This document shows, one piece after another, positions 553 through 20,175 of a stretch of DNA of 27,714 nt (positions within the stretch are counted from its first letter, which is position 1; each line of letters begins with the position of its first letter). Position numbers and translations under genes: made by a program. Where the stretch lies: IMG/VR virus record IMGVR_UViG_2778261035_000014. The stretch is one strand, 5' to 3'. The notes under the pieces are model-generated. The model was given only the letters and a program-made list of their open reading frames with translations, had not been told where the DNA came from and ran no database searches. This DNA is from a virus (Duplodnaviria > Heunggongvirae > Uroviricota > Caudoviricetes).

Positions 553-785
553 AAAATAATCCATCAATCGTTTGTTAAAAGCGTAGATAACCACTTATTC
601 AACAACTTGAAAATAAGGTATTTTACCTGGGTTGTTACAAAAGGATTGCATTGCGTAAACGCTTTTTATTTACAAAAAAATGGGGAAGTGTTACAGCGAT
701 TGCGAAAAGCCTGAAGCGGTTGAATTAAGATAATATAGAAAATCAGATACAGCAAAAATGGCAGATTGATCAGGTGAAGATAAAT

Positions 786-832
786 TGGAGCGGGCGAAGG
801 GAATCGAAAAGGCTTGCTCTAAGCACCGGAAA
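786..832. repeat. Left att junction: 22-bp core tggagcgggcgaagggaatcga (786-807) plus 16-bp motif ctctaagcaccggaaa (817-832)
   Basis: The core is identical to 14043-14064 and the 16-mer to 13978-13993. The core's reverse complement TCGATTCCCTTCGCCCGCTCCA has a T-loop, acceptor 3' strand and CCA, matching my recollection of tRNA-Gly (glyU-type). The adjacent sequence does not fold into a full tRNA. Confidence 0.6.
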
Positions 833-900
833 AGATAAACCAAACAGACGTTTACGTAAATCCACGGTAACTAGTAGCGGTAGCTTACTAGGTTAAGACC

Positions 901-2115
901 ATGACGATCAAGGGCAAAGGAACAAATTATCTTTACGTAAACAGTGACGGGATTTATATCATCCAGCTTCATATTCCCGTTTACATGCGCCACCTCTGGA
1001 ACGGTCGCAAGATGCTTAAAAAATCAACAGGCACTCGCGATCTTGTGTTGGCTCGTAGGTTTCGTGATCAGTACCTGATGGAGTTCAGAAGGCTACAGGC
1101 GCAATTCAACCCAAATGCTTATCTCCTCAAGATTCAGTCAGCCATTACCGATCTACGTTTCGTTGGTGCTGCATCTACTAATCTCGTTCCAGATTTTCAG
1201 ACAGCCACCAAAGGGAAACCTTCAACGCCAAAGTTAAAAGACCTTTGCGACGAATACATGAAGGTGTATTCAGACAGGCGGAGCTACTCCACTTTGCAAA
1301 AGTCTGCCCGTGCTGTCGAGGCGTTTACGAAATCCATAAAAAGACCAGCGATTACAATTGGCAGTATTGGTCGCCGTATGGTGACGGAGTTCCTGGAGGC
1401 TAACCAAGGCAAGTTTTCACCTCAAACGTTGCAGAACTGGCTAACCTCTTTGGGGAGTCTGTACGAATTCGCCAAACGTCGATATGACGCAATCCCGGAC
1501 AGTAACCCGTTTCACGGTCACAACCTCGAAGCACGGCGCACCATTGAAAGTTATCAACCGTTTGAAGCCAATCAACTGGATACCCTTATCAGAGAAGCGG
1601 ATGACGTTCTACGCGATGTCATATTAATTGGGCTGTATTCAGGAATGCGACTTGATGAGATCGCCAGCATTAAACGGGATGAGATTGTAATGTTGGAGGG
1701 TGTCAGATGTTTCTTTGTCAGCAAGTCCAAGACTGTAGCCGGGGTGCGGTATGTTCCGATCCACTCGCTACTGATGGGGATTGTTGATAAGCATCTGACA
1801 CAGAACAGTGGTGAATATCTTCTGGCACAGTCTAATAACATCATTCGGAAGGATGGCAAGCGAGGTCCGTGGTACAGCCAAAAGTTCACCCGGCTGCGTG
1901 ATAGCGTTTTGCCAACAGCTACAGATCGGCAGTGCTTCCACTCTTTGAGAGGGATGTTCATCACCTGCCTGGACCGGGCAGGAGTTCCCGAACAACGGAT
2001 CGGAGCCATTACGGGGCACACAGAGCAGAAAGCGAAAACTGAAGCATTCAGAACCTACAGCAAAGGCGCGGGGATGAAGGAACTATCAGAGTATGTGGAG
2101 TTGGTGAATTACTGA
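901..2115 (+). CDS. int: Tyrosine-type site-specific integrase (phage integrase family)
   Basis: 404 aa. C-terminal catalytic motifs are visible: SGMRLDE (Arg), HSLRGMF (His-x-x-Arg), GHTEQ...RTYS (His/Tyr). Its C-terminal half is about 70% identical to the 14141-15361 product. Confidence 0.9.
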   Translation: MTIKGKGTNYLYVNSDGIYIIQLHIPVYMRHLWNGRKMLKKSTGTRDLVLARRFRDQYLMEFRRLQAQFNPNAYLLKIQSAITDLRFVGAASTNLVPDFQTATKGKPSTPKLKDLCDEYMKVYSDRRSYSTLQKSARAVEAFTKSIKRPAITIGSIGRRMVTEFLEANQGKFSPQTLQNWLTSLGSLYEFAKRRYDAIPDSNPFHGHNLEARRTIESYQPFEANQLDTLIREADDVLRDVILIGLYSGMRLDEIASIKRDEIVMLEGVRCFFVSKSKTVAGVRYVPIHSLLMGIVDKHLTQNSGEYLLAQSNNIIRKDGKRGPWYSQKFTRLRDSVLPTATDRQCFHSLRGMFITCLDRAGVPEQRIGAITGHTEQKAKTEAFRTYSKGAGMKELSEYVELVNY

Positions 2116-2136
2116 AAAATAGGGGGCGAGCCCCCT
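2115..2136 (-). terminator. Intrinsic terminator hairpin between convergent genes
   Basis: Stem aggggg/ccccct (2121-2126 / 2131-2136) with loop cgag; on the minus strand it is followed by a T-run, 7 nt downstream of the 2143 stop. Confidence 0.4.
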
Positions 2137-2142
2137 AAAGTG

Positions 2143-2421
2143 TTATTTAGGCCATTGTTCTTTAATAAAATTAGCAACCTCTGCCGACAAGTTGAACCAA
2201 CTTGCAACATTGTTGCTTGCATCAACAACGATTAATTTATCGTCTGCATCCATAGATTTTCGCACAATTTCCGCAGCTTGCGAGGCGGTATAAGTTGAGT
2301 TCACATACCAGTTCGATTCTGTGACTTTTGCCCAAGCTCCTAATGATTGGATGGCTTTATGTACTGCCGGGTAGTCTTTGGTCTTGATCAGGTCGTAAGT
2401 TACAAAGAGGTTATTTGCCAT
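2143..2421 (-). CDS. Hypothetical protein (92 aa)
   Basis: ORF with ATG at 2421 (MANNLFVTYDLIK...) preceded by a GGAG Shine-Dalgarno; the longer ORF-track start is GTG. No family recognised. Confidence 0.55.
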   Translation of the reverse strand: MANNLFVTYDLIKTKDYPAVHKAIQSLGAWAKVTESNWYVNSTYTASQAAEIVRKSMDADDKLIVVDASNNVASWFNLSAEVANFIKEQWPK

Positions 2422-2610
2422 TTCGCTTCTCCATGAACGCCATAACACCGAATTTTTAACTACGTTAGCGTTATAGCGACTTCTAGCGACTTCCGTAAAC
2501 GGTCAGTTATCAAACAATTGACACTGGTCATAAAACCAGTAAAAACTTTTTTCCGAGCTTGCTAACTTTGCCGCTTCGCTTCTATCATAACCACTACATA
2601 TTGTGTTTAT

Positions 2611-2619
2611 TGATATAAT
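2611..2619 (+). promoter_or_regulatory. Extended -10 promoter element TGATATAAT
   Basis: Exact TGnTATAAT match about 45 nt upstream of the 2664 ATG; no good -35 needed. Confidence 0.35.
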
Positions 2620-2663
2620 AAATACAATATATCCAAACATCCATCCCGTGAATAGGTGTTGAA

Positions 2664-2912
2664 ATGGCGAACAATGATAAGCAATCCTCGAAAGATGTAG
2701 CACATCTGGCAGCAGAGACTCTAAACAACCCAAACGCCTCTGCGATTCAGAAAAGTTTAGCGGGTTCGGTGCTATCACAAGCAGGAACAAAAAATCAGAC
2801 TGGCGCAAACATGGAAGCCAAAGCATCCGCAGCATTGAAAAACCCACGCTCAAGCGAGGTTACTAAAACCTTAGCTGGTTCGGTTGTTTCCCAATCGAAT
2901 AAAAAGCGCTAA
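2664..2912 (+). CDS. Small hydrophilic protein with an internal repeat (stand-alone moron-like gene)
   Basis: 82 aa with AGGTG Shine-Dalgarno. Internal repeat (Q/T)K(S/T)LAGSV(L/V)SQ occurs twice. Has its own promoter and terminator. Confidence 0.55.
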   Translation: MANNDKQSSKDVAHLAAETLNNPNASAIQKSLAGSVLSQAGTKNQTGANMEAKASAALKNPRSSEVTKTLAGSVVSQSNKKR

Positions 2913-2946
2913 AAAAAAGCCGGGATTAACCCGGCTCTCATGTTTT
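2911..2946. terminator. Bidirectional intrinsic terminator
   Basis: A8 tract, then stem gccggg/cccggc (2919-2924 / 2930-2935) with loop attaa, then tgtttt. It reads as hairpin plus T-tract on both strands, between convergent stops at 2912 and 2938. Confidence 0.6.
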
Positions 2947-3150
2947 CAGCTTTCGTTGTCGCTGTTCGCTCAAGTAGTACCTGATAGCGCTGTCGAATCC
3001 ATGCGTATGGATGCGGTCAAGAAGGCTGGAACGACTACACTCAAGCCTGCGTGCTAACGCTGACATGTTGATGATCGCATCATCGCCTTTACCGTCCAGA
3101 ATCCACTGCATCAGCGGCATGTTGCCAGTACCGATCAAAGCTAATTTCAT
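2938..3150 (-). CDS. Small helix-turn-helix DNA-binding protein (70 aa)
   Basis: ATG at 3150 with a perfect AAGGAG Shine-Dalgarno 6 nt upstream. HTH-like segment MSALARRLECSRSSLLDRI. C-terminus AIRYYLSEQ resembles the 17329-17544 product (AVQYYVSKQ), and both sit just downstream of the capsid gene. Confidence 0.6.
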   Translation of the reverse strand: MKLALIGTGNMPLMQWILDGKGDDAIINMSALARRLECSRSSLLDRIHTHGFDSAIRYYLSEQRQRKLKT

Positions 3151-3263
3151 ATATATCTCCTTTCCTTTGCCTCCAGCACCGAAGGTGTCTCGCAATAGCG
3201 AGAGTGCTTCGCACCGTTAGCCTCGCCAGCAGCGGGGGCAATGCGCCCCCAAAATCCGCTGTC

Positions 3264-4280
3264 TTACGCCGCGTCATCCATCGTAATTTTCAAAACGAAG
3301 TCCGGACGCATTGGGATCTGAATTTGTGATAGCTCGCTGACCACCTCATAATTCATGAACTTATCACGCAGAACGTAATGGTAAGACGGATAAACCGGAC
3401 CATTAGCAACTTCTGCGTGGCGTGAGGCTGGCGTGCAGTAGGTCATATAAGGTGAAAGGTCGCCTTCAACAACATTGGAGAACGTCGCCAGCATGTAGCC
3501 TTCACCATCTGCAATGCCATATAGCGGATCGTCAACCTGCACCACTGTTACACGCCCGATGTTATATCGATCATATGCACCCAAAGTGTCAGGGAAAATG
3601 ATGTCACGGGACGTAGCACCAAACAGAGCCGCCTGATATGCGGTTGGGTTGCCTTGAATGGCGGTGAAAAGACTCGGACTCGCCAGCAGATAAACCTGCT
3701 TGATGCTGGAAGACCAGCCACCCAGATTTTTCTTCAGCAGCGTGACAGCGTTCTGCATCTCAGTAATGACGTTGGCACTGATGCCAGTTTTCACCACAGC
3801 AGACGGCTGGTTAATACCCCAGAAGGTTTGCCAGTTCAGATCAGGACCTTCACGTAGGTGTGTCGCCTCTACAGTATTGTGAAGCAGGCTCTGCGCCATG
3901 GCATATTCAACATCACGGCGGGTTTGCAGGTAGTGCTTCAGGGTATGATTAGCAACTACATCTTCAGCGGTCATCTGGCGATTTGTTCCCGGCTGACGTT
4001 TCCCCTGCCAATCCTGGCTGGTGATGGTTGAGCTGTAGACATGCAGTGGAGCCTGAACGGTCACGTTAGCCGCTTTAGGGAAGTTTAGACCCGACATTTC
4101 AGAACCATAACGGGCAACTGATTTAGTCACTTCACGCTGCACATCTTCAAGTGTGTCGAGTGCGATGATTTGCGTATCACTTGGACGGCTGGTAAAGATC
4201 CCCAGGCTGGACAGAAGGAACCCCTCGCCGCTTGGCTTCACGAATTGACCAGAAAGATTAGTAAAATCACTTAATTTCAT
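3264..4280 (-). CDS. Major capsid protein, lambda gpE-like (Phage_cap_E-type)
   Basis: 338 aa against about 341 for lambda E. By eye it shares block patterns with my recollection of gpE, such as a C-terminal RPDFVLKIT motif. Paralogous to 17665-18693 (DWQGKRQPG vs DVQGKRKPG). AAGGAG Shine-Dalgarno. Follows a ~115-aa gene, as in lambda D-E. Confidence 0.7.
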   Translation of the reverse strand: MKLSDFTNLSGQFVKPSGEGFLLSSLGIFTSRPSDTQIIALDTLEDVQREVTKSVARYGSEMSGLNFPKAANVTVQAPLHVYSSTITSQDWQGKRQPGTNRQMTAEDVVANHTLKHYLQTRRDVEYAMAQSLLHNTVEATHLREGPDLNWQTFWGINQPSAVVKTGISANVITEMQNAVTLLKKNLGGWSSSIKQVYLLASPSLFTAIQGNPTAYQAALFGATSRDIIFPDTLGAYDRYNIGRVTVVQVDDPLYGIADGEGYMLATFSNVVEGDLSPYMTYCTPASRHAEVANGPVYPSYHYVLRDKFMNYEVVSELSQIQIPMRPDFVLKITMDDAA

Positions 4281-4298
4281 ATTGTTATCTCTCCTTGA

Positions 4299-4643
4299 TT
4301 AGATTGCGGTGTTTGCGTCAGCAATACGGTTGCCTTGCTTAACAAGGGCAGCGTAAGCAGCATCTTTTGCAGCAGCCGCTACAACCAGACCTGATGGATT
4401 GAACACGCATTGGGTATCACTGATAACAAGGCTACGGGCATCACCAGCGACTTGATTTTGCAGAGCTACAGCACAGTTATCAGCATCTGCTGCAACGTAT
4501 GCCGCGCCAGTGGTCGGGTTAATCACATCACCACAAGTCACATCAGCAGCCAGATCAAGGATCACGGTGCGCTTATGAAAGATCGGTGAATCGGTATAAA
4601 CCAATACATCCTGTGGGGTTTTGCTTTCGTATTCGAATGCCAT
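4299..4643 (-). CDS. Putative head decoration protein (gpD-like by size and synteny)
   Basis: 114 aa from the ATG at 4643, which has a GGAGA Shine-Dalgarno (ORF-track start is 4658). Directly upstream of the capsid gene with an 18-nt gap. Paralog at 18712-19083. Product is assigned from size and position, not from clear sequence identity. Confidence 0.45.
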   Translation of the reverse strand: MAFEYESKTPQDVLVYTDSPIFHKRTVILDLAADVTCGDVINPTTGAAYVAADADNCAVALQNQVAGDARSLVISDTQCVFNPSGLVVAAAAKDAAYAALVKQGNRIADANTAI

Positions 4644-4694
4644 ATTTTGTATCTCCATACAGTTTTTATAATCCGGCGAATATGCCGGGTTGAG

Positions 4695-4722
4695 TTGAAA
4701 AAATACCGTCCATCGGACGGCA
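4695..4722 (-). terminator. Intrinsic terminator or attenuator upstream of the capsid operon
   Basis: Stem ccgtcc/ggacgg (4706-4711 / 4715-4720), followed on the minus strand by TATTTTTT. A second hairpin ccggc/gccgg at 4673-4688 lies between it and the start codon. Confidence 0.4.
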
Positions 4723-4996
4723 TTCTTCTATTCGTGTTCCAACAGAAAAAGACCAAGGCGAGAATATCCCGCCCGGTGTAGGTCAGTAGTTTTCTGATGG
4801 AGAGATTTGGAAAGCATGAGTGTGTTCACGCTTCAGGAATAAGGAGGCGGCAACGCTCCAAAGAATGGGTAAGGAGACCCAAAAACGTTGCCACCTGATG
4901 CCGTTAGTGTCCGGCTGACAGCCTTCCGAGGATGAAAGGGCTTTGGCAAATCTCCGATCCAAGGTCGGAGAAAATTCTTCTACACCCGTTTACGGG

Positions 4997-5016
4997 TTAG
5001 CAACATATGTTGCTAA
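4997..5016. promoter_or_regulatory. Perfect 20-bp palindrome ttagcaacatatgttgctaa (candidate operator)
   Basis: Exact dyad symmetry, preceded by hairpin cccgtttacggg (4985-4996). Sits in the 650-nt ORF-free gap between the tape-measure-like gene and the capsid genes. Confidence 0.4.
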
Positions 5017-5313
5017 TCGCTCTACGATACTTTTCTAATACAGCCAGCGGCAATGGCCTAACCTTCCCGTGAGAGAGTGCGGATTATTGGCTGTATGAGA
5101 AAAGGCCCGCACGGTGTTCACACAGGCACTTTAAGTAAGGAGAAGGAATGACAACGGCTGTTGTACGCACATACAATTTAAATCATCACCCTATGCAATT
5201 ATTTTAACACGAATGATTATCATTTGCAACAACAAAAACAATAACATGGCGAATTTAACGGCCCTCTCTCGTGTGGGCCAATTTACTACGTCATTTTTGA
5301 CGGAACGATGATT

Positions 5314-7482
5314 TTAGTCCGCAATCCCAAGGATGAGGTTATTCTGCGCCTGGTTGTTTTCCCTTATCTTGGTATCAATCAGACCGTTAATCGCACCATC
5401 ATTAACATTCACCTCAAGAGGCGCAAACTTGATCTCAGCTTCGCCAGTGACCGCAACAGGAATCGGCTGTCGTTGAACTATGCTATCAATTGTCGGAACC
5501 GTGAACGTTGGTTGCTGGGGTGTCAGATAGTTCAGGCCAGGAACATTCAACGCTAGTGCTGGATCGTTATACGCCATGCCTGAGCCGATATTGCTCGGAG
5601 CGGAACTATCCAGCCACGGGTAAATCTGCTTAAGCGTCTGACCGATGCTACGTGGATCAAAGCCGGTCTTTTCCTTAATCCAATCGGCAGCACCATTTGA
5701 GGAGTCATCTACCACGCTCGTATAAACCGCATCCGGCAATGTTGCGCCTTTCTTGAGTTCTTCACCGACTCGACCAGCGAAGGAAAGAATGTTGGTGGTT
5801 AGCTCACCAAGAGCAACGCCGAGGGCATCGGAAATTGGGATCAGTCCAGTCATATTCTGACGTAGAGTGTCAGTATTGGCAGCGTACTGCCCCAGGCCTT
5901 CAACAAACGAGGCTGAGAAGTGATCCGCAAGACTTGTTTGTACTCGGTTGTACTCAGCACCCAAAGCTGCCAGCTTATCAAGGTTGGCCTGCTGTGCATC
6001 AGATAGGGTCCATCCTTCAGAAGCGAGTTGATGCATACGGGCAATAACTTCATCACCTTCCCCACTGATACCCGCCATCAAGACCGATCCGTCATTGATC
6101 GCTTCCAAAAAATGACGCATGGAATTCTCTGTCCAGCCGAATTGTTTACCCAACTGCCGCACATAGGTAACGAAGGTCCCCATGTCCAATTTCTGAAGCT
6201 CGCCAATCACTTTTTGTGCTGTTCGCTGGTTGGTTTTGCTAAGAACTGCATTCACCAGATCGGCAAGTTCACCACCTCCGCTGAATGTTGTTACCCCTTG
6301 CTTGTTAGTTTTAAAGGAACCGGTATTCAGTAGCTCACCTGCTTTCTCGAAGTAATCCTTATTCATGGACGCATACTTATCTACGGTCAGGTCGTACCCT
6401 GTACGCTTCTGTACAACGTCATGGATAGCATTAAATTCAAGCTGGCTAATATCATACTGCCTTAATTGCTGCGCCTCTCTGGAGCGTTCAAGACTCCCCT
6501 GGAGGGTCTGACCAACACGAGCAACTCCCATTGAACCAATCAGGGATCCCCCTGCAATTACACCAGTGGCAGCGAGGCCACCATAACCACGTTCGCTACG
6601 TTCACGTCTCAAACGTTGAGCATTAACGCGCCCTGCTCGCTCTACTTTAGCCCGATCCTTAACCATCTGGCGGTTAATACGTGCCTGCCGCCTGGTTTCC
6701 AGAGTCGCTTTAGCAAGTTCATGGCGCATTTCTGCGATGGTATAACGCTGCTCGGAGTATCCCTTGGTAGCCTCTTTGATTGCCTGCACCGCTTTCATTT
6801 TGTCAGCCAGGCTGGCACCTTCGATATGGCTGATCGTTAAACTGGCGCGGCGTAGGGTGTCGTATGCAGTGCTCTGGCGCTTGAGGCTGGCTTCTTTCTC
6901 ACGCTGGCGCTTCTCTTCCAGGGCCATCGCCTTTTTGGTGGCTGCGATGTCAGCAGCAACAGCGCCGTGACCACGGTTCATTGCGTCAGTCTGACGGGAA
7001 ACAAGACCAGGATCGTAATGTTGACCGCCCATGTTAGGGTTGTAGGTCATCGCTCGTGATCTGGCTGCGGCCTGCACTTTTGCGGATATATTGGCTAAAC
7101 GGGCGTTTTGTCTCCGGATCTGTTCACTATCTGCCAATTGTTGAGCCTGCCCTCTGGCGTTAAGAGCCTGCATTTTCCGGGCGTGAGCCTCTTCCTGTTT
7201 TGCGATCTTTGCCTGGGCTTGGGCCTGGCGTTGTTGCTCTAGCGAAAGCTTTTGAGCCATTTTGAGGCGCTGTGTTTGAGCGCGGGCTGCTTCAAGGGCT
7301 GCTTTACCCTCACTCTGGGCGGTTCGCTTCTGAGCTTGCTCCAGCGCTTTAGCAGGTTTGGTAGTTAATTGCTGAAGTGACAGAATTTTCTTCTTCGCTG
7401 CTTCGTAACTAGAGCGGGAAATTTCCCAGCTTACGATATTGACGGTGCTCGTCACTATCTTGTTGGTTGTTCCACTACTCAT
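5314..7482 (-). CDS. Long coiled-coil protein with a glycine-rich hydrophobic segment (tape-measure-like, function unresolved)
   Basis: About 722 aa from the ATG at 7482 (MSSGTTNK...), which overlaps the upstream stop in ATGAGTAG. N-terminus is Ala/Gln/Lys/Arg-rich and helical. Central segment GYGGLAATGVIAGGSLIGSMGVARVG. Analogous to 15469-17310. Confidence 0.6.
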   Translation of the reverse strand: MSSGTTNKIVTSTVNIVSWEISRSSYEAAKKKILSLQQLTTKPAKALEQAQKRTAQSEGKAALEAARAQTQRLKMAQKLSLEQQRQAQAQAKIAKQEEAHARKMQALNARGQAQQLADSEQIRRQNARLANISAKVQAAARSRAMTYNPNMGGQHYDPGLVSRQTDAMNRGHGAVAADIAATKKAMALEEKRQREKEASLKRQSTAYDTLRRASLTISHIEGASLADKMKAVQAIKEATKGYSEQRYTIAEMRHELAKATLETRRQARINRQMVKDRAKVERAGRVNAQRLRRERSERGYGGLAATGVIAGGSLIGSMGVARVGQTLQGSLERSREAQQLRQYDISQLEFNAIHDVVQKRTGYDLTVDKYASMNKDYFEKAGELLNTGSFKTNKQGVTTFSGGGELADLVNAVLSKTNQRTAQKVIGELQKLDMGTFVTYVRQLGKQFGWTENSMRHFLEAINDGSVLMAGISGEGDEVIARMHQLASEGWTLSDAQQANLDKLAALGAEYNRVQTSLADHFSASFVEGLGQYAANTDTLRQNMTGLIPISDALGVALGELTTNILSFAGRVGEELKKGATLPDAVYTSVVDDSSNGAADWIKEKTGFDPRSIGQTLKQIYPWLDSSAPSNIGSGMAYNDPALALNVPGLNYLTPQQPTFTVPTIDSIVQRQPIPVAVTGEAEIKFAPLEVNVNDGAINGLIDTKIRENNQAQNNLILGIAD

Positions 7483-7858
7483 TGCCCCCCCCCTGCTGCT
7501 TGATGATATTGCCGTAACGATCAGGATCAGATTTTGCGAGTGCAGCAGCCGCTGCTTTAGCTTTCGCCAGCATTTCAGGATCGATATGGTCAGCGGTATG
7601 TGAGACAACCGGACGGCTATCAGCACCCAACGATTTTTTAATCCGTTGTTCAGCACCAAAGGTGTCTCGCATTGGTGAGAGGGCTTCGCCCTTTTTACCC
7701 GTGGGTGTGTCAGCCGGGGCTGATTTGAGCAACTCCGGATGTTGATCCAGAAAGTTATCGGTGACGCTCTTCAGATTGTCCCGCGCTTTTTGAAGTTCGT
7801 ATTCCTCCGGTGTCATGCCATGCATGGCGGCGAAAATCCGGTCTTTTATTGTGGTCAT
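7475..7858 (-). CDS. Hypothetical protein (127 aa)
   Basis: ORF with a GGAGA Shine-Dalgarno, translationally coupled to the downstream long gene. Contains the MRDTFGAE segment whose DNA (7655-7695) is about 85% identical to 3175-3217. Confidence 0.45.
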   Translation of the reverse strand: MTTIKDRIFAAMHGMTPEEYELQKARDNLKSVTDNFLDQHPELLKSAPADTPTGKKGEALSPMRDTFGAEQRIKKSLGADSRPVVSHTADHIDPEMLAKAKAAAAALAKSDPDRYGNIIKQQGGGNE

Positions 7859-8029
7859 TTTTATAGTATCTCCAGAGAAGGATGCTCCCGCCGATCAGGA
7901 CGTGACGAAGCGCCACCCAGCCCCAAGGCAGGAAAAAGATGTAATCAAGGTTCATTGGCCCCCGATGTGGGGTTGGGTCAGTGCATCGCAAGGCGATTAA
8001 CAGCAATTGCTGTTAACCCTTTCAGGGTG

Positions 8030-8608
8030 TTAGTAGTGCAGGCGTGGTGAACGTCGCTGCGGGTTCTTCTGTTTTCTGGCGACTGTTTCACGATAGGCCA
8101 CAAACAACGGATCAGTATGATCCGGCATTCGAGATGCCATTTCTTTTTCAGTGATTCCTTCACGCTTAAGCAGCGTCACCACGGTGAATAGAGGCAGTTG
8201 AAGGTCAGCACAGATTTTTGCCAGCATTGCGCCGGATTCGTAGTACATTCGGGCCATTCGCTTAGTGGCATACTGACTGGTATTGCTTATCTTACGACAG
8301 CGAGGATTCCACGAGTTATCGTAAAGGCCTTTTACCAGGTCATACGGCAAGCGTAGGAGCAGCGCCGTTTTGCCTGGGGTGTAACCATGCACGAGCATTT
8401 TTTTAGCAGTCTCGATCAGCGAAGAATCACGAGAGCGGGATTTGTAAAAACGTGACAAATCGGGGGTTTCAGCACCGGAGGTGTTTACCTCTGGTAAACT
8501 GCTTCGCACCGTAAGGGATTCAGCCGTCAGGCCGTTGGCTGTCTGGCTGATGCCAGTTACTTTCTCACACAATATTCCTCCAGTATCAAAAAGGGATCTC
8601 AGGATCAT
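8030..8608 (-). CDS. Hypothetical HTH-containing protein (possible regulator or small-terminase-like); start uncertain
   Basis: ORF of up to 199 aa whose 5' end overlaps the rep-like gene. HTH-like segment GAMLAKICADLQLPLFTVVTLLKREGI. No family recognised with confidence. Confidence 0.35.
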   Translation of the reverse strand: MILRSLFDTGGILCEKVTGISQTANGLTAESLTVRSSLPEVNTSGAETPDLSRFYKSRSRDSSLIETAKKMLVHGYTPGKTALLLRLPYDLVKGLYDNSWNPRCRKISNTSQYATKRMARMYYESGAMLAKICADLQLPLFTVVTLLKREGITEKEMASRMPDHTDPLFVAYRETVARKQKNPQRRSPRLHY

Positions 8609-9389
8609 CTTCATCGTAGTGATATACATCCGGCCCGTTAACTTGTTGCTTTACTGGCGCTGGTTCTGTTGCGGGTATATCGTCAGGCCGCATCTGTTCT
8701 CCTGGCTCACCCATATTGGTTTTGCCTTTCAGTTTCCATACAAGTTTGATCTCATCCTGCCAGGTTGTAGCACCATGGGATTGCGCCCAGCGTCGCGCCT
8801 CTGGAACCAAATCCCCACGAGAGGTAAACGAGTTGGCGAGCCATGGTATCCCGACAACATTTTCCCCAGCTGACTCACTCAGTGATGGATCATCACTATT
8901 GGATAAATCAACATCGACAGGAATATCCACAGCAGGTACGCCGTCTGGTTTTCCAGTAACAGGCGCGGCAGATGCCACCACGAAAGATTCCACAACAGGT
9001 TTTTGCTCATTCTTACCGCTCTCCTCGGTTTCCACTTTTCTATTACTCGCCTGCGCGGAATTATGATCGTCAAGAAAAACCATCAGCGATGGATCGAGTT
9101 CGACCGGAGAAATTTTGTGTGTACTCCCCTTCACTTCCTCAAAAGTGATCATTCCAGCTTCACGAAGCTTGTTCCTGAAATTGCGAACGGCTTCGGGCTT
9201 GCAGCCGCAACGTTTACCAATCGTGCCAACAGATTCGTAATAAGTTCTGCCTGTTTTGTCATAGCTGTAAACCAGAGATAACAAAATTTTCATGTTGCCA
9301 TTAATGGTCAGGCCGTTGTACTCGGTAAGGTCGAGAACGCTGTATTCAAGTTTTACAAAATCCTTACTGTCCCGGTTCTGTTTGCTCAT
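8586..9389 (-). CDS. Replication-initiator-like protein with N-terminal winged-helix DNA-binding domain
   Basis: 267 aa with a GGAGA Shine-Dalgarno. N-terminal segment KILLSLVYSYDKTGRTYYESVGTIGKRCGCKPEAVRNFRNKLREAGMIT is typical of phage or plasmid replication initiators. Acidic Pro-rich C-terminus. Positional analogue of 21938-22603. Confidence 0.55.
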   Translation of the reverse strand: MSKQNRDSKDFVKLEYSVLDLTEYNGLTINGNMKILLSLVYSYDKTGRTYYESVGTIGKRCGCKPEAVRNFRNKLREAGMITFEEVKGSTHKISPVELDPSLMVFLDDHNSAQASNRKVETEESGKNEQKPVVESFVVASAAPVTGKPDGVPAVDIPVDVDLSNSDDPSLSESAGENVVGIPWLANSFTSRGDLVPEARRWAQSHGATTWQDEIKLVWKLKGKTNMGEPGEQMRPDDIPATEPAPVKQQVNGPDVYHYDEDDPEIPF

Positions 9390-9567
9390 TCTGTTCTCCG
9401 TAAAGTGTCGCCTTGCTGGCTAATGCTGGTTTGATGTCTGGTGTGTTGTCGAAAATGTTCGCGGCAGTCTCCAAGATTTCATTACAGAGCCGTGCCAGGG
9501 GCTTGTCCTGCCTTTTGGCCTCAGCCAGTAGAGCCTGATAAACGTGCTGTTGAAATTTGATGTTCAT
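9364..9567 (-). CDS. Ribbon-helix-helix (CopG/Arc-like) DNA-binding protein
   Basis: 67 aa. MNIKFQQHVYQALLAEAKRQDKPLARLCNEILE is clearly homologous to the element-2 small ORF MNINFDSATYNALLNRAKAEGKSIPKLVNELLI. Overlaps the rep-like gene start. Confidence 0.55.
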   Translation of the reverse strand: MNIKFQQHVYQALLAEAKRQDKPLARLCNEILETAANIFDNTPDIKPALASKATLYGEQNEQTEPGQ

Positions 9568-9655
9568 TCAAGTTGTCCTCCTCGTTCTAGGTACAAAAGA
9601 CCTCCCGCCAGTGGTCGCCCAGAAGGCGAACCGGCTCAGGTTTTGTTCAGTGTTG

Positions 9656-10102
9656 TTAGGCTGCGGTTGCTGTCGGGAATTCGCCAGCCAGTGGATAACC
9701 GTAGGCTTCAAGTTCTTCTGCACCGCTGACAGCCACAAGCAGCATAATGATCTGCTCATGAGTCAGAGAAAGACCTAGCTTATCCAGATAAAGCTGTCGA
9801 TGGCCTTCCAGGATTGGACGAAGTATATCGGTCAACTCCATTCCAGCAGCGCGTTGATTACTCAGCGGCTTAAGGATGGTTTTAAACGCTCGCGCCTGCT
9901 TCGCCTTTTTGCGCTCCTGCTTCAGAATATGCAGGCAGACGGCAATCTGAGGAAGTCGGGCATGTACAGCGTCTGCCCCGCCGTTTCTACTAATGAAGGC
10001 CCACAAGGCTGATTTGGTGTATTTGCCGTTCAGGATGAGATCAGCGATCTGCTCGCCTGTCATAGTGGTCAGGTCGAGACGTTGGGATTTTGGTTTATTC
10101 AT
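9656..10102 (-). CDS. Hypothetical protein (148 aa), first gene of the leftward operon
   Basis: ORF with a GGAGA Shine-Dalgarno; no family recognised. Confidence 0.5.
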   Translation of the reverse strand: MNKPKSQRLDLTTMTGEQIADLILNGKYTKSALWAFISRNGGADAVHARLPQIAVCLHILKQERKKAKQARAFKTILKPLSNQRAAGMELTDILRPILEGHRQLYLDKLGLSLTHEQIIMLLVAVSGAEELEAYGYPLAGEFPTATAA

Positions 10103-10850
10103 TGGGTTCTCCGTTCTGTTAAAAGAATTATTCGCGGAGGTTCTATTTGTAACCCATTTTGTATTGCCGTGAGGTTGACAAGGAATGTCGTGATGACGGC
10201 AGAATTATTCGAGGATTCATAGGTAAATCATTACCCTACTAGAATCTATTGTATCAGATTTGTCTGTAAATAGCAATCATTATCATGTAGGATTTTATAA
10301 TGCATAATAATCACCATAACACTACAAGTTTACAAAATCTTTGTCAATAGTGCCAAGCCGTTCTATAACGCGTTCTGCGGGTACTTGTCACCATAGGAGT
10401 ACATACGTATCACCACCACCGTTTAAACGCCATAGAGAGGCTTTAAGGAGGTCTGTTAGTTAACCCGCGCCGCCCCGGAGTGAACCGGACAGATGCAAAG
10501 CAGTCCTCTACGCCGTGCTCCGCTCCACATATGGCGAACAAGTTCGCAGCTTCCACACAGAGTAAGAGCGTAGCTCTATGGCGTAGCCTGCCGGGTTACC
10601 CGAGTCACAGAGCGGAGCGATGTGTTAACGAGGGTTAGAAGGTCACGAGATGGCGTGGCTGTTTCACGTCAGCGAAGGTGAGCTTCTTACCACAAACATA
10701 TCTGAAGTGGCTGACCAGCCATTGCAGAGCGGAGCGATGCAGAAGCATCACTATTAAAACTAACAGAATGACCAACCGTCATTCCGTGCTCTCGACCTGG
10801 AGGTACTTTTCTTATCAGTTCTTTTATGGGGATTGTTATTTATTATTATT

Positions 10851-10932
10851 GTGCTCGAAAATCGACTACCCCCTACTCGAAAATCGTGCAGGTAGGTGCT
10901 CGAAAATCGAGGGGGTGGGTACACGAAAATCA
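10851..10932. repeat. Iteron-like array: four ~23-bp direct repeats with core CTCGAAAATCG
   Basis: gtgctcgaaaatcg (10851), tactcgaaaatcg (10875), gtgctcgaaaatcg (10896), acacgaaaatca (10921). Spacing is 22-24 bp, about two helical turns. The spacers ctaccccct and agggggtgg are complementary. Confidence 0.55.
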
Positions 10933-12213
10933 TGCAGGTATCACCGGGTGAGAATTTTCCAAGTCATCCACGCGACCAACGCACCGATGAAAACTTCCGG
11001 TTTGATATGTCCGCGTCATGCTTCAATGGCACAATCAACGGCAACACCTGAGGCGGTCCAAACACCTGATCCGCTCCGAGAATTGATCATCTCCCTCCCC
11101 TGCTTTCATCTGAAAGTACCGACCATTCTCCGCGCTGGCTGAAGATTGGCAACCCTATACTGATTTTCTGTCAAAATTTGGTGGATGATCTTTACCATTG
11201 GCTATCTTGTAAACAAAATAGATTAAATGCACCTCAAATAGCCCATAATCCGTAGTTAATCATGCTAAAGTGGTCACTATGCGTACAAATCAGAAGTCTG
11301 AACCTATGGGCGTTATGGTGTGATGTACATAACGAAGCCTTGCCAGCACTGGAAGCGTGAAATTTGGTGGCTGGTATCTGGATCAAGCAACACTCAATTT
11401 CTGAACCTTCGCTTCAAAAAAATAATAAAACAACACACAAAACCAAAACAGATGCCCTCTGGTGGCTGCTGTATCGCGCTGTGGGATGCTGTGGATTATC
11501 GGTATGTCAGTTCACGTTTGTGTAGAGATAACGCCGCTACGGGTTTCTGGTTGAGCGTAGGAGGGATTGGTGGGTTGGCTGTTTACATTGTTGTGGGAAA
11601 TGGTACGAAACAGTGGCGGCCTGGCTCGGTGAATATCACCAGGTGATGGCAGACCTTCAGCCCGTTGTGGTAACGTCGCCGTAGTAGCCCTATGTCTGCT
11701 GCGAATAGAAAAATGTGCTTTTATGGCATTTGATGCACTGTAAACTTCAAAGGCCTGAAACCTGAAATTGTGTGGTGACCAGCCAAACTCATCCAAAATC
11801 CTTGAACAAGAGAACTCACCTCAAATCCTCCTGAATGCTTTCCTTCTGTTGGTGAAATCGCTGTTGTGTACCACGCTTCGCATCAACGCTCCGAAAAGCA
11901 ATACCTGACTATTCCAGTCAAGTACATGTAAGATACAATATGTTAAATGGCTGTACAATTAGTGAACACAGGCACTTCAAAACATCAAGTTATCTCCCTT
12001 GCCTCAGCCCAAAGCAGCATTGTGTAACTGCACTGCTTGTTGCAGTGAGGCGTGTCGCTGAAGGCATCACGTAGCGATATTTGGCGAAGAAAAGCGCTTT
12101 TCACCGAGGGCCTGGGCTGACGGTCTAGCAGATCACCAACAGAGCTGGGGATATTTTCAACAGGAGAATGTAAACTTGGAAGATAAAGAGCCGGGACACT
12201 TACGGGGCAGGTT

Positions 12214-12429
12214 GTGGAAATGAAGAAAATTTTACTATTTGTTGTGGTACTGCTGCCGCTGGCGGCTCATGCAGGAAAAATCACCATAAGCAACCCCGAC
12301 GAACAAGAATTACAGGGCGGGAAAAGGCTTTGCACTTACGAAAACAGCATTTATCTGTTTACGCTGGTGACTCGCTCGCAATCCTGCCCTTTCTCAAAAA
12401 CGTTCGATACAAATGATAATGAAAAGTGA
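12214..12429 (+). CDS. Small secreted protein with two conserved Cys (paralog of 25846-26061)
   Basis: About 70 aa with signal peptide MKKILLFVVVLLPLAAHA. Conserved blocks GKITISNPDEQ, LCTYENS.YLFT, CPFSKTFDT are shared with the element-2 paralog. Confidence 0.6.
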   Translation: MEMKKILLFVVVLLPLAAHAGKITISNPDEQELQGGKRLCTYENSIYLFTLVTRSQSCPFSKTFDTNDNEK

Positions 12430-12442
12430 AACGGAATGTCTG

Positions 12443-12931
12443 CTAATGGGGTGCTTTGCCGATCATCTCCTTAAGATCTTTGAAGCGTTCTTTGATTATT
12501 CTTCCATTCTCGGCTAAACGATTCGCTTCAAACGCAGTGAATTGAGCAATATTTTCTATTTCTTCGCGGCTGATGCTCATAAAATTCTCATCAAGCTTAG
12601 AGAGCATATTTGTGACACCTTGTCTACTTTGTGTAAAGAAACCAAGGTTATCTCTGACACCCTTAAGAAGTTCTTTCTTACCATAAGGGTTCATATTTGT
12701 ACTCGTTTCTATAGACTTGATAAGCTCTTCCGTGTCACTACATATTCCACGGTAAACCAGTTCGACCTCACGAAGCTCTTTCACTGTATCAATTTTCATT
12801 TTCCTTAATGAATCATGCTCAGCATTTTTTCTTGATCGATAGGTGTTATACAGAGCAGTTATACTGACAACAAGTGCAATGAAAGAGAATAGAGCGCTAA
12901 AAAAAGGCAGCAATTCTTTTGACATTTTCAC
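12443..12931 (-). CDS. Membrane-anchored coiled-coil protein (cargo, unknown function)
   Basis: 162 aa with a GGAG Shine-Dalgarno. N-terminal TM helix LLPFFSALFSFIALVVSITALY, then a charged helical domain. Low GC. Confidence 0.6.
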   Translation of the reverse strand: MKMSKELLPFFSALFSFIALVVSITALYNTYRSRKNAEHDSLRKMKIDTVKELREVELVYRGICSDTEELIKSIETSTNMNPYGKKELLKGVRDNLGFFTQSRQGVTNMLSKLDENFMSISREEIENIAQFTAFEANRLAENGRIIKERFKDLKEMIGKAPH

Positions 12932-12953
12932 TCCAAATTTATTAGTCTAGAAG

Positions 12954-13652
12954 TTAACTTCTAAATTTTTGAAAACAACGTCGATCAATCTCTTGTGCCA
13001 ATCTAGTCCGCATCTCTCCATAGCTTAATCTTTCCATATCTGAGGCTATTTTCCAACCACAACCTTTGAAATTACATTTAATAATAGGAAATGGGACATA
13101 GTTATAGAGATCAACGCTGGAGTGTTGGCTAAGAAGGCCTCCACATTTAGGGCATCTCATGTGAAGATTTATTAAAGAGTACCCACTATCACCTAATGCT
13201 TTAGTCCATTCCCAAGAAACTATCATTTCATAAATATTATCCGAAGTATAATGCAAAAAACTGCCCTCTTGTCCTGTAGCTTTCGCTGCAATACGACGGC
13301 GCATTACAAATCCAACAGTAGGTAAAATTGCCAATAATAAAATCGATAAAATGAGGAGCATCCATAAGGGCATTGTGACTGGGAAGGTAAGGATGTCCAT
13401 TAACCAATGGAAGAACTGCTTAATGTAATTCCATAGCCACACAACGACGGCGATCCCACTTCCTCCAGTGACAAGTGCAACGATAACGCCCGATATGCTG
13501 TCTTTGCTAAGGTCTTTCAACCATGCCATAGAAATTCTTCTTATTAAGCTATTCTTTATGCTCAATTTTACAGCGAACCAGATTTTAGGCAATAGGAGCC
13601 ATAAAGCGCCGTGATGGGTACATCCATCGATCAGCGCCTTCAGGCGTGTCAT
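12954..13652 (-). CDS. Membrane protein with C-terminal 4-Cys zinc ribbon (cargo, unknown function)
   Basis: Up to 232 aa; the start may instead be the internal ATG at 13529. Two or three hydrophobic helices, then CPKC-(x25)-CNFKGC. Sits 22 nt upstream of the 162-aa gene, so probably an operon. Confidence 0.55.
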   Translation of the reverse strand: MTRLKALIDGCTHHGALWLLLPKIWFAVKLSIKNSLIRRISMAWLKDLSKDSISGVIVALVTGGSGIAVVVWLWNYIKQFFHWLMDILTFPVTMPLWMLLILSILLLAILPTVGFVMRRRIAAKATGQEGSFLHYTSDNIYEMIVSWEWTKALGDSGYSLINLHMRCPKCGGLLSQHSSVDLYNYVPFPIIKCNFKGCGWKIASDMERLSYGEMRTRLAQEIDRRCFQKFRS

Positions 13653-13977: not shown

Positions 13978-14064
13978 CTCTAAGCACCGGAAACATAAAG
14001 ATTTTTTAGCTGATTTTAAGCGTAAAAAATCGCTGGAGCGGGCGAAGGGAATCGAGGAAACCCA
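13978..14064. repeat. Inter-element att junction: 16-bp motif (13978-13993) and 22-bp core (14043-14064)
   Basis: Same two motifs as at 786-832 but in the opposite order and with 49 nt between them. Confidence 0.6.
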
Positions 14065-14140
14065 TAATAACCTGCTGTAAAATAAAGATTTTGTGATCAA
14101 TCATAGGTAACTGATTACGTGATAATAGAGGATCATTATC

Positions 14141-15361
14141 GTGTCGATCAAGAGCCAAGCATACTTATTTAAAAGAAAAGATGGGATCTGGATGTTTCAG
14201 ATTTTTGTTCCTAAATACTTACGTCATCTTTACCCTTATAAGTTGTGGAGAAAAAGCACATCTACACGAGATCTGAATGAGGCGAGAAGATTCAGAAACC
14301 ATCTATTATTAGAATGGGAGGAACTAAAGCGAAAACATAATCCTGATAACCCCGAAAGGAGGTTACAAAAAGCTATTGAATCCTTACATTCAGAGGCAAG
14401 GGCCAATAAAAACACGCAAAGAGCCGTAAAACGCGGTTATGCACCGCCTTCCCTGTGCCTAATACGTGACGAATACGCCGAATGCTACAGAGAGCGTCGT
14501 TCATACTCAACACTACAGAAATCAGCAAGGGCCGTTGAGCTATTTTTACAAAGCATTCAGAAAGATGATATTCATATTGAGAAAATAGGCAGACGGCTTG
14601 TAACAGTATTCTTAGATGACCAGAAGCAACGAGGAGCAGCCGATCAATCTCGTCAAAACTGGCTTACATGCTTAGGATCGCTCTATGAATTTGCTAAACG
14701 CCGTTATGACGGAATACCAGACAATAACCCTTTTCACGGTCATAACCTCGAAGCACGTCGCACAATCGAGAGTTATCAACCGTTTACACCTGAACAAATG
14801 CAAAAGCTACTTGATGCAGCGGAGCCGGAGATCAGAAATATTATTTTAATGGGCTTGTTTTCAGGATGCAGATTAGACGAACTGGCAAGCCTGAAAAAGT
14901 CAGAGGTTGTAACTGTGGAAGGAATACGCTGTTTTTATATCAGCAAGAGTAAGACTAAAGCAGGGATCAGACACGTTCCGATACATTCGAGACTATCGAT
15001 TATTGTCGATGAATATTTAAATCATAATTATGGTGAATATTTGTTCCCTCACTCGAACAAAGTAAAAAGAATCGACGGCAAGAAAGGCCCGTTCTATTCT
15101 CAAGCATTCTCACGTTTACGTCGTAACGTCTTGCCAATCGCTACAGATAGACAATGCTTTCACAGCTTGCGCGGGATGTTTATCACTTGTCTTGATCGTG
15201 CCGGAGTGCCTGAACAGCGGATCGGAGCCATTACCGGACATACAGAGCAGAGAGCTAAAACAGAAGCCTTTCGCACCTACTCACAAGGGGCAAGCATTCC
15301 AGAATTAGCTGAATATGTAGAATTAGTAAAATATGAATTAAATATTGATTTTAAGGCGTAA
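14141..15361 (+). CDS. int: Tyrosine-type site-specific integrase (second, diverged copy)
   Basis: 406 aa with a GTG start and AGAGGA Shine-Dalgarno. Same catalytic motifs (SGCRLDE, HSLRGMF, GHTEQ...RTYS). N-terminus differs from integrase 1. Confidence 0.9.
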   Translation: MSIKSQAYLFKRKDGIWMFQIFVPKYLRHLYPYKLWRKSTSTRDLNEARRFRNHLLLEWEELKRKHNPDNPERRLQKAIESLHSEARANKNTQRAVKRGYAPPSLCLIRDEYAECYRERRSYSTLQKSARAVELFLQSIQKDDIHIEKIGRRLVTVFLDDQKQRGAADQSRQNWLTCLGSLYEFAKRRYDGIPDNNPFHGHNLEARRTIESYQPFTPEQMQKLLDAAEPEIRNIILMGLFSGCRLDELASLKKSEVVTVEGIRCFYISKSKTKAGIRHVPIHSRLSIIVDEYLNHNYGEYLFPHSNKVKRIDGKKGPFYSQAFSRLRRNVLPIATDRQCFHSLRGMFITCLDRAGVPEQRIGAITGHTEQRAKTEAFRTYSQGASIPELAEYVELVKYELNIDFKA

Positions 15362-19301: not shown

Positions 19302-19330
19302 TGTTGCTTTACCTTTTCTAACATTCTTGT

Positions 19331-19361
19331 TTAGTGCTGATAAAATAAAACCGGAAGGGGA
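19331..19361 (-). terminator. Intrinsic terminator upstream of the capsid operon
   Basis: 7-bp stem ccggaag/cttccgg (19341-19347 / 19355-19361), followed on the minus strand by TTTTATTTTA. Confidence 0.55.
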
Positions 19362-20175
19362 AAACTTCCGGCTTTATGAATACAACATTTTGAAGGATGC
19401 GATAGAAGTGTTACTAAATCGTAGTTATATGCACTTAAAGAGGATAGGACATATAAGAATAAGATTGCTTATTGTTATATACCCTTGAGGGGTGAATAAC
19501 AGGCTTACAGGGAGTAGGCGCTTAGGAGGTCGCCCCCTTTGGAGAGGAATCTATAAACCTGTTATTCGTGCGATGGCTAATCGCTGTCGTCACAATGTGG
19601 ATGCATCGATCAGACGTTCAGGAATCACCTATTAACTTTCAAACCTTTTTGGATTCTCGTTTTAATAGGAGTGGTGCCGAGATGATTTCGGGGATCATCC
19701 ACGCTTTCGCGTTCTAAGATTGGCACCTTAATAAACACCAACAAACAAAAAACGTATTCAGCTTTAGGCTTAGTAGAATTGCTGTTAAGAAACAGATATA
19801 CACCGTTATTTGTTTATACGGGGTTTATAGACACTGTAAACAGTGTTTTTAGAAAGTGTTTCATGCTTCACAGTTGGTTAAAAAGATGAGGGGCCAAGTC
19901 CATAGCCCCTGCATTCTTAAGACACAATTTTGATAAAGCAATAAGGAAAATAAAATGAAACTATTAACGAGGGAAACAATTTCTAAAAATCACTGTAAAG
20001 GGAAAGCGAGGTAGGTTAGATAGGGCGCGACCCCTTGAGGTCTACCCCGCTTTCGTGTAGGATTAAAATCTGGAGAAGGATTAACGCCAGCTAACACCTG
20101 TTTTAGATTATTTCCTCTACATTTCTTATTATATAACATTTCTGTTATAAAGTCAATAGTTAAATCAAAGTTTTT

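Follow-up and report, generated by a model that had tools for sequence, protein, structure and literature searches.

The stretch of DNA analysed here (27,714 nt, IMG/VR record IMGVR_UViG_2778261035_000014; hereafter the window) carries a small, integrative satellite-like element, element 1 (nt 901 – 13652), with homologues of the lambda head genes D (decoration protein) and E (major capsid protein). The gap of about 650 nt ahead of these genes very probably encodes a structured RNA, conserved among relatives and equipped with a promoter and terminators of its own, that is transcribed towards the head genes. Its body is predicted to run from nt 5194 to nt 4698, i.e. ~450 nt to a first terminator (T1) and ~500 nt to a second (T2), and it most likely belongs to a family not yet catalogued, a cis-regulatory leader RNA of a phage-related late operon. 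As to its action, we hold as evenly poised between right and wrong a combined reading in which the leader blocks capsid expression, both by termination and by a segment complementary to the downstream ribosome-binding site (RBS), until a factor forces read-through and opens the operon. Positions are those of the window, and all features of the gap lie on the minus strand unless otherwise noted.

In RefSeq, no feature is annotated between the stop codon (nt 5314 – 5316) of the upstream gene, a 781 amino acid (aa) open reading frame (ORF), and the decoration gene. The gap measures 655 nt if the latter begins at the ATG of the longest ORF (nt 4658), and 670 nt with the RefSeq start (nt 4643; 114 aa). 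The ATG at 4643 is most likely the true start: it has GGAGA 8 nt upstream, at the correct spacing, and the ATG at 4658 falls within the ribosome-binding sequence. An earlier note, made from the letters of the sequence, had remarked on this gap and, within it, on a terminator (given as nt 4695 – 4722), a second hairpin and a perfect 20 bp palindrome. The gap is borne out, and all three features are present, the terminator as GCCGTCCGATGGACGGTATTTTTT (nt 4721 – 4698), the second hairpin as CCGGCATATTCGCCGG (nt 4688 – 4673), and the palindrome, which is indeed perfect (inverted repeat I5; chance expectation ~6e-4 per 655 nt), as TTAGCAACATATGTTGCTAA (nt 4997 – 5016). The region is more than a chance assembly of hairpins. 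Its minus strand has a fold energy of -220.6 kcal/mol (z = -8.76), compared to z = -4.11 for the plus strand, and a sliding scan of element 1 (160 nt windows, minus strand) gave a mean z of -3.76 in the gap relative to -0.26 ± 1.22 elsewhere, with the three strongest-folding windows of the whole element inside the gap. Terminator-like sites number 5, against 1.4 ± 1.3 in shuffled sequences. The note's picture of an untranslated leader with scattered hairpins is right as to the gap and the hairpins, but what lies there is instead a structured RNA that is conserved, backed by covariation and preceded by a promoter of its own. Three features had been overlooked: terminator T1 (nt 4777 – 4743), the promoter (nt 5229 – 5201), and the conservation of the fold between them.

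Relatives were collected by searching with the capsid protein, which gave 7 loci in reference genomes (Enterobacter, Dryocola, Pseudocitrobacter (two), Kluyvera, Silvania and Pantoea); 2 more loci came from viral contigs, 12 from assemblies and 26 from metagenomes. Each relative locus has 450 – 850 nt without a conserved ORF ahead of the decoration gene, regardless of which gene lies upstream, and all of these stretches fold well below shuffled controls. The capsid proteins are 75 – 100% identical while nucleotide identity is patchy, and the latter is therefore useful for a test of structure. A covariance model of the central domain (R1, 116 positions) has its sole strong match in the window at nt 4945 – 4831 (72.9 bits, E ~4e-26). 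Scanned against 100 sources, it found 41 strong matches (50 – 110 bits), one per related enterobacterial locus, and every one of them precedes the capsid gene on its own strand, always on the same side and at the same distance, a strict linkage. A separate 16-mer scan of viral contigs returned 57 loci, almost all of them chance matches, which served as negative controls; R1 matched only 2 of these, which look like genuine members. The model also has a weak, recurrent match (15 – 21 bits) within the capsid gene (window nt 3732 – 3831, minus strand; ~2953 – 3049 in the loci) that includes the motif AAACUGGCA. This is probably a chance similarity, kept because the gene is conserved. In one metagenome relative (L040, nt ~1 – 1900), a transposase-like sequence stands in place of the RNA and of the first part of the decoration gene, in what looks like an insertion-sequence disruption. 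The gap of the window itself, with its flanks, occurs at 100% identity in E. coli strain 90-1 and nine other genomes, and the gap sequence is carried by 13 of 5,426 complete E. coli genomes.

Four elements recur when the relatives are aligned. Hairpin C (nt 4939 – 4922) has a variable stem and a conserved loop of the CUCCUC type, and 4 of its 5 pairs show changes on both sides in an alignment made without regard to structure. Directly after it comes an H-type pseudoknot, UGUC[A GCCG]GACA CUAA CGGC (nt 4920 – 4900), in which both stems covary; it could be parsed in 28 of 30 variants, with such divergent forms as CAUC[UUGUCAC]GAUG-GAAA-CUGACAA in locus L004 and CGUC[UUGCCA]GACG-AAAA-CUGGCA in L009. 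The long hairpin E (nt 4896 – 4845) carries the apical sequence GGGU-CUCCUU-ACCC and has compensatory changes at 9 of the 10 pairs of its main helix. It is followed by a pyrimidine tract, CCUCCUUAUUCCU (nt 4847 – 4835). In a structure-blind MAFFT alignment of 25 distinct sequences, three helices were paired in 93.3% of cells, compared with 26 – 43% when the 3' partners were slid by 1 – 3 columns; 9 of 14 pairs had changes on both sides, none of 500 shuffles did as well, and the covariation score was 0.41 relative to 0.08 – 0.12 in the slid controls. The alignment produced by model R1 (31 distinct sequences) gave similar values (92.1% of cells paired against 32 – 57% when slid; 17 of 22 pairs compensatory), and RNAalifold independently recovered hairpin C, stem 2 of the pseudoknot and helix E. 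A structure-fitted alignment reached 99.7% pairing with 14 of 18 pairs compensatory, figures that lean to structure by construction.

The 5' domain is built around two features. Hairpin T0 (nt 5129 – 5105) is terminator-like, and its CUUUUCU tail forms the 5' strand of a long helix, I1 (nt 5104 – 5030; arms 5104 – 5088 and 5046 – 5030), which encloses the conserved sequence CUCUCACGGGAAGG. This inverted repeat has 16 predicted pairs, several of them compensatory. Both T0 and the 16 bp helix, in which the U-run behind T0 is matched by an AGAAAAG further downstream, were recovered by RNAalifold from a structure-blind alignment of 11 sequences, with 9 of 22 pairs compensatory. Between the 5' and central domains, hairpin B, UCUCCGACCUUGGAUCGGAGA (nt 4971 – 4951), is conserved in most relatives. 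The strand is indicated by G-U pairs, which by our count make up 61 of 661 paired cells in the R1 alignment. Read from the complementary strand, each of them would become a C-A mismatch, and the folded molecule is therefore the minus-strand transcript. Within the RNA, UCUCC is enriched 4.6-fold and GGAG depleted 3.3-fold, and the four to seven UCUCC motifs are placed in loops, which suggests that they bind something.

A consensus scan places a predicted sigma-70 promoter at nt 5229 – 5201, with TTGCAA as the -35 box, a 17 nt spacer and the extended -10 box TGTTAAAAT, so that transcription is predicted to start at ~5194. Of 27 distinct regions ahead of the RNA in relatives, 22 have the pattern TTGnnA-17-TGnTAAAAT, followed after 8 – 12 nt by (A/G)GGTGA(T/A). 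W-type promoters, those of the window and its closest relatives, have in their spacer a dyad, AATGATAATCATT (nt 5224 – 5212), that agrees by eye at 14 of 19 positions with the 19 bp Fur-box consensus, GATAATGATAATCATTATC. Locus L032 has a symmetric variant, GAATGGTTACCATTC, that departs from this consensus, and other promoter variants are without a dyad. The spacer dyad hints at repression of the RNA, possibly iron-dependent, in the W-type subgroup only, and if the gap holds any operator it is a better candidate than the palindrome.

Downstream of the folded body, T1 (nt 4777 – 4743) is a GC-rich hairpin followed by CUUUUUCUG, and lies ~50 nt upstream of T2 (nt 4721 – 4698), the terminator named in the earlier note. 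Both have the hairpin and U-run of predicted intrinsic terminators. They occur in tandem in nearly all of the 29 distinct variants, T2 as a hairpin with U-run at the same place, with stem sequences that differ from one relative to the next; the mean hairpin energy of T1 is -16.5 kcal/mol. The next hairpin (hairpin 3, nt 4688 – 4673), which is the note's second hairpin, has the form CCGGC-N6-GCCGG and is conserved in most relatives. The claim that a terminator separates promoter and capsid start thus holds, and in nearly all 29 relatives there are two, placed after the only recognisable promoter. A riboswitch-type antiterminator at T1 was rejected. Across the 29 variants, the strongest pairing that upstream sequence could form with the 5' arm of T1 averaged -15.0 kcal/mol, as against -15.9 for shuffled arms, and since no upstream segment does better than shuffled arms, read-through is unlikely to be set by an alternative hairpin. 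With tandem terminators in the way and no alternative antiterminator pairing, capsid expression plausibly needs a trans-acting read-through function, and the factor is probably processive because it has two or three terminators to pass.

Just upstream of T1 lies a near-invariant segment, AAUCUCUCCAUCAGAAAA (nt 4807 – 4790), containing the conserved UCUCCAUCAG, which we refer to as the anti-RBS; its UCUCUCC was invariant in a first alignment of eight sequences. UCUCCAUCAG can pair with CUG(N)AUGGAGA of the decoration RBS, within the translation start region CUGUAUGGAGAUAC (nt 4662 – 4641; RBS region 4662 – 4649, ATG 4643 – 4641). It is also complementary to a look-alike of that RBS, the decoy UUUUCUGUUGGAAC (nt 4749 – 4736; inverted repeat I3), which starts in the U-run of T1, contains the segment CUGUUGGA, and after T1 has the strand form CUG-N1-3-UGGA. 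Mean duplex energies of the anti-RBS over 24 variants were -13.1 kcal/mol with the decoy and -13.4 with the decoration RBS, compared to -3.9 with random windows of the same RNAs. This three-way complementarity is kept through sequence change. In L020, the anti-RBS CCGUCAG faces the decoy CUGACGG, a paired change, as is that in L015 (CCUGUCAG and CUGACAUGG); L012 has the anti-RBS CCAACAG with the decoy CUGUCUGG and the RBS CUGUAUGG, and in L019 decoy and RBS are identical (CUGAUGGA). A pairing of UCUCUCC with the RBS of the capsid gene (GGAGAGAU) was also considered and rejected, as the variants of that site (GGAGUGAU, GGAGCGAU and GGAACGAU) are uncompensated. The T1-stopped transcript ends like a base-pairing small RNA, with a free seed, a hairpin and a U-tail, and the read-through transcript has its own decoy.

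From these features we infer efficient termination, induced read-through, and a function for anti-RBS and decoy, in the following manner. The gap RNA, made from its own near-consensus sigma-70 promoter, would be the leader of a capsid operon in which the major capsid gene follows the decoration gene. By default, transcription would halt at T1 and T2, so that the capsid genes stay silent and folded RNA accumulates, and on leaky transcripts the exposed anti-RBS (UCUCCAUCAG) upstream of T1 would block the decoration RBS. A factor of a helper phage or of the element may then push the polymerase through T1 and T2, leading to transcription of the capsid genes; upon read-through, the decoy that follows T1 would pair with the anti-RBS in cis and free the decoration RBS. 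The large central fold, with its pseudoknot and CUCC loops, may be a docking site for the factor. We lean slightly towards the view that the RNA gates capsid-gene expression by termination and read-through, and put forward the anti-RBS and decoy step more tentatively, as a possibility that falls somewhat short of an even bet. The proposal in the earlier note that capsid expression is gated by repression and/or antitermination thus survives in outline on the side of antitermination, with tandem terminators and no antiterminator pairing; its other half, repression through the palindrome, does not (see below).

Several points weigh against such a gate. The promoter, the RNA ends and the efficiency of the terminators are all predictions. 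No antiterminator-like protein could be recognised among the proteins of element 1, and no hexamer of the TAnnnT type, as in the -10-like pause element of lambda Q systems, is common to all variants within the first ~25 transcribed bases. A related capsid gene and a similar leader were both absent from a collection of 50,697 phage records. The pairing between the anti-RBS and the capsid gene's own RBS is without covariation support, and the anti-RBS pairing is in part the generic complementarity of CUCC to Shine-Dalgarno sequences. The U-tracts of T0 and T1 are also strands of conserved helices, and these hairpins could be mainly structural. Lastly, the conserved fold of ~350 nt exceeds what a terminator gate needs, and hints at a further function. 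It is improbable, in our estimate, that the RNA stands for a new large-RNA class of capsid-encoding satellite-like elements, with a fold that works beyond carrying the terminators, whether by sensing helper infection via a protein of the helper or of the element and making the polymerase terminator-resistant (as an inducible counterpart of HK022 put), or by a physical part in the assembly or loading of the element's capsids.

The alternative that retains most weight, although we think it unlikely, is a stand-alone, trans-acting non-coding RNA, for which T1 and T2 would serve as 3' end and insulator. It might interfere with the helper, titrate a protein or Shine-Dalgarno sequences via the UCUCC loops, or act as a scaffold, and the capsid genes would be expressed from an activator-dependent late promoter past T2, with hairpin 3 as the activator site. 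In its favour are the strong promoter (predicted) and terminators that the RNA has to itself and its large and complex conserved fold; the enrichment of UCUCC with depletion of GGAG suits an RNA that displays unpaired motifs, and the window has a TATAAA box 17 nt past the point where the hairpin 3 dyad starts. This box, however, is not conserved in L004, L005, L007 and L015, even though hairpin 3 is kept. All 41 copies of the RNA stay beside capsid genes, and the conserved complementarity of anti-RBS, decoy and RBS points to an effect on the adjacent gene.

That the palindrome is an operator, bound by a helix-turn-helix (HTH) or ribbon-helix-helix (RHH) protein of the element to repress capsid expression, as the earlier note had supposed, is very unlikely. 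The palindrome is perfect and improbable by chance, but it lies ~190 nt downstream of the promoter and forms the central one of three hairpins that make up a portable module (nt 5029 – 4983; AUCG-N5-CGAU, UUAGCAAY-N4-RUUGCUAA and CCCG-UAAA-CGGG). Its half-site TTAGCAA is kept wherever the module occurs, yet the module occupies three different positions. With the anti-RBS as landmark, it is found on the upstream side in the window, L026 and L009 (at 214 or 207 nt), 29 nt downstream in L010, L011, L028, L049 and others, and ~100 nt downstream in L004, L005 and L007; it is present twice in L034 and L035, and many variants are without it. In L006, the same module contains another middle hairpin. 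Only in the window is the palindrome perfect: the central four bases in relatives are ATAT, GTAT, GCAT, ACAT, CAAG, CCCA or AAAA, and because they vary, the perfect 20 bp symmetry is incidental to an AUAU loop. C-G, U-A and U.G all occur as the closing pair, an RNA-type covariation that fits an RNA stem and not a DNA dyad. The module also matches (92.5% over 40 nt) the noncoding DNA of two unrelated, virulent Salmonella phages of the genus Seunavirus (rV5-like), NINP13076 (L024, nt 1495 – 1545) and SalP219 (L025). It is a portable RNA-level element, not an operator of the RNA promoter.

We give no more credence to the idea that the gap is a site acting as DNA, either for packaging (cos/pac) or as an origin, with hairpins that are protein-binding dyads or single-stranded DNA structures. 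Lambda-like phages do have cos just upstream of the head genes, and the element must hold a packaging signal somewhere, none having been located. However, covariation preserves pairing rather than sequence, the G-U pairs are strand-specific, and the region is framed by a promoter and terminators. Similarity to any phage cos region is absent, and iterons typical of an origin lie elsewhere (nt 10851 – 10940). The gap as a copy of a helper's late promoter or cos was likewise rejected, similarity to phages and plasmids being limited to the 40 nt module. That the gap hides one or more missed small genes is almost certainly wrong: ORFs of 25 – 115 codons can be drawn in every variant and the Shine-Dalgarno-like AAGGUGAU follows the start site, but close relatives disagree in the position, frame and length of their ORFs, the conserved GCGTACTACTGCC block falls in different frames or has no ATG, and conservation is tracked by base pairing, not by codons.

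Searches for a known counterpart of the leader RNA were negative. No Rfam 15 family reached its gathering score anywhere in the window, and a permissive scan of nt 4500 – 5500 (E <= 10) gave only a chance match to AS-traI (E 9.7). In the literature, we found no description of the structured RNA or of the accessions of the element's proteins. Closest in its working is the late control of lambda, where PR' is likewise a constitutive-looking promoter, the 6S RNA a short RNA terminated (at tR') just before the head genes, and bypass of the terminator (by Q) a requirement for the structural genes. The head genes of element 1 are themselves homologues of lambda D and E. The leader described here, however, is 2 – 3 times longer, has a conserved fold with a pseudoknot, two or three terminators, and an anti-RBS with decoy; it shows no similarity to phage late regions and no consistent pause element, and no Q gene was recognised in the element. 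The C4 RNAs (Rfam C4) of phages P1 (c4) and P4 (CI) are also leader-encoded regulators, complementary to a downstream RBS or leader, that couple a block of translation with termination. They are ~70 – 80 nt in length, are cut from the leader and have a defined fold, whereas the present RNA is ~450 – 500 nt, some six times larger, with an unrelated architecture and no match to the C4 model; the likeness of UCUCCAUCAG is a resemblance in function only.

Structured leader RNAs ahead of terminators in phage-related operons are known from HK022 put, EAR and LoaP. The put RNA, at ~70 nt, consists of two stem-loops and gives constitutive read-through; the likeness here is in leader position, and no put model figured among the Rfam matches. 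In size, the RNA resembles ROOL, GOLLD, OLE, HEARO and raiA, which are also several hundred nt long, multi-domain, supported by covariation and linked to mobile elements (ROOL and GOLLD in prophages). Unlike them, it has no Rfam match, is confined to one gene neighbourhood, has a mosaic of swapped or inserted domains, and carries terminators and an anti-RBS.

The DNA of the window is E. coli chromosome. Element 1 is satellite-like, of an unusual and little described kind. It has a tyrosine integrase (nt 901 – 2115, plus strand) and, on the minus strand, the lambda gpE-like major capsid gene (nt 3264 – 4280), the gpD-like decoration gene (nt 4299 – 4643 or 4658), the 781 aa tape-measure-like gene (nt 5314 – 7659) and a replication-initiator-like gene (nt 8586 – 9389). 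No portal, terminase, protease or scaffold gene is recognisable in it. The capsid protein did not point to a helper, as tblastn of this protein against the 50,697 phage records gave no matches. A 2.1 kb stretch (nt 10102 – 12220), in which RefSeq records annotate no gene, contains four to five iterons of 22 – 23 bp with a CTCGAAAATCG core (nt 10851 – 10940) and more short repeats, and windows at nt 10561 – 10880 are also unusually structured; it is probably the replication origin of element 1. No transfer RNA (tRNA) or transfer-messenger RNA gene was found in the window with ARAGORN. Strain 90-1 has a tRNA-Gly gene at the point where a second element, element 2, begins in the window (~14030 – 14141); element 2 probably occupies the tRNA-Gly attachment site, in tandem with element 1.

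Similar gaps occur in other elements. In element 2, an ORF-free stretch (nt 19302 – 20156, minus strand; z = -7.5) lies upstream of the capsid-gene cluster, with a promoter TTGACT-17-TATAAT at nt 20156 – 20128 (minus strand) that has a dyad in its spacer, and with terminator-like hairpins at nt 19910 – 19889 and ~19376 – 19351. An element of Aeromonas veronii has a 502 nt gap (z = -7.8) with a terminator, located between a tape-measure-like gene and head genes. In this distantly related locus (L109, nt 586 – 5023), where the capsid protein is 28% identical, the order is tape-measure-like gene, structured gap and head genes; two further genes, one for a prohead protease of the S78 family and one like phiTE_211, precede the decoration and capsid genes. 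Homology of either gap with the element 1 RNA was not detected by blastn or by model R1, and they are analogues rather than detectable homologues.

Three elements unrelated in sequence thus share a layout of promoter, long structured RNA, terminator(s) and head genes, and this design may be general for such little described elements. Large bacterial RNAs with clear covariation support are uncommon, and Rfam 15 does not contain the one described here, a modular RNA with a pseudoknot that is represented by ~31 distinct sequences. The arrangement of anti-RBS, decoy and RBS predicts that compensatory mutations would restore control. The RNA occupies the step at which a parasitic element must choose when to make its capsid, and may provide a handle on how capsid-encoding satellites time their structural genes relative to the helper.

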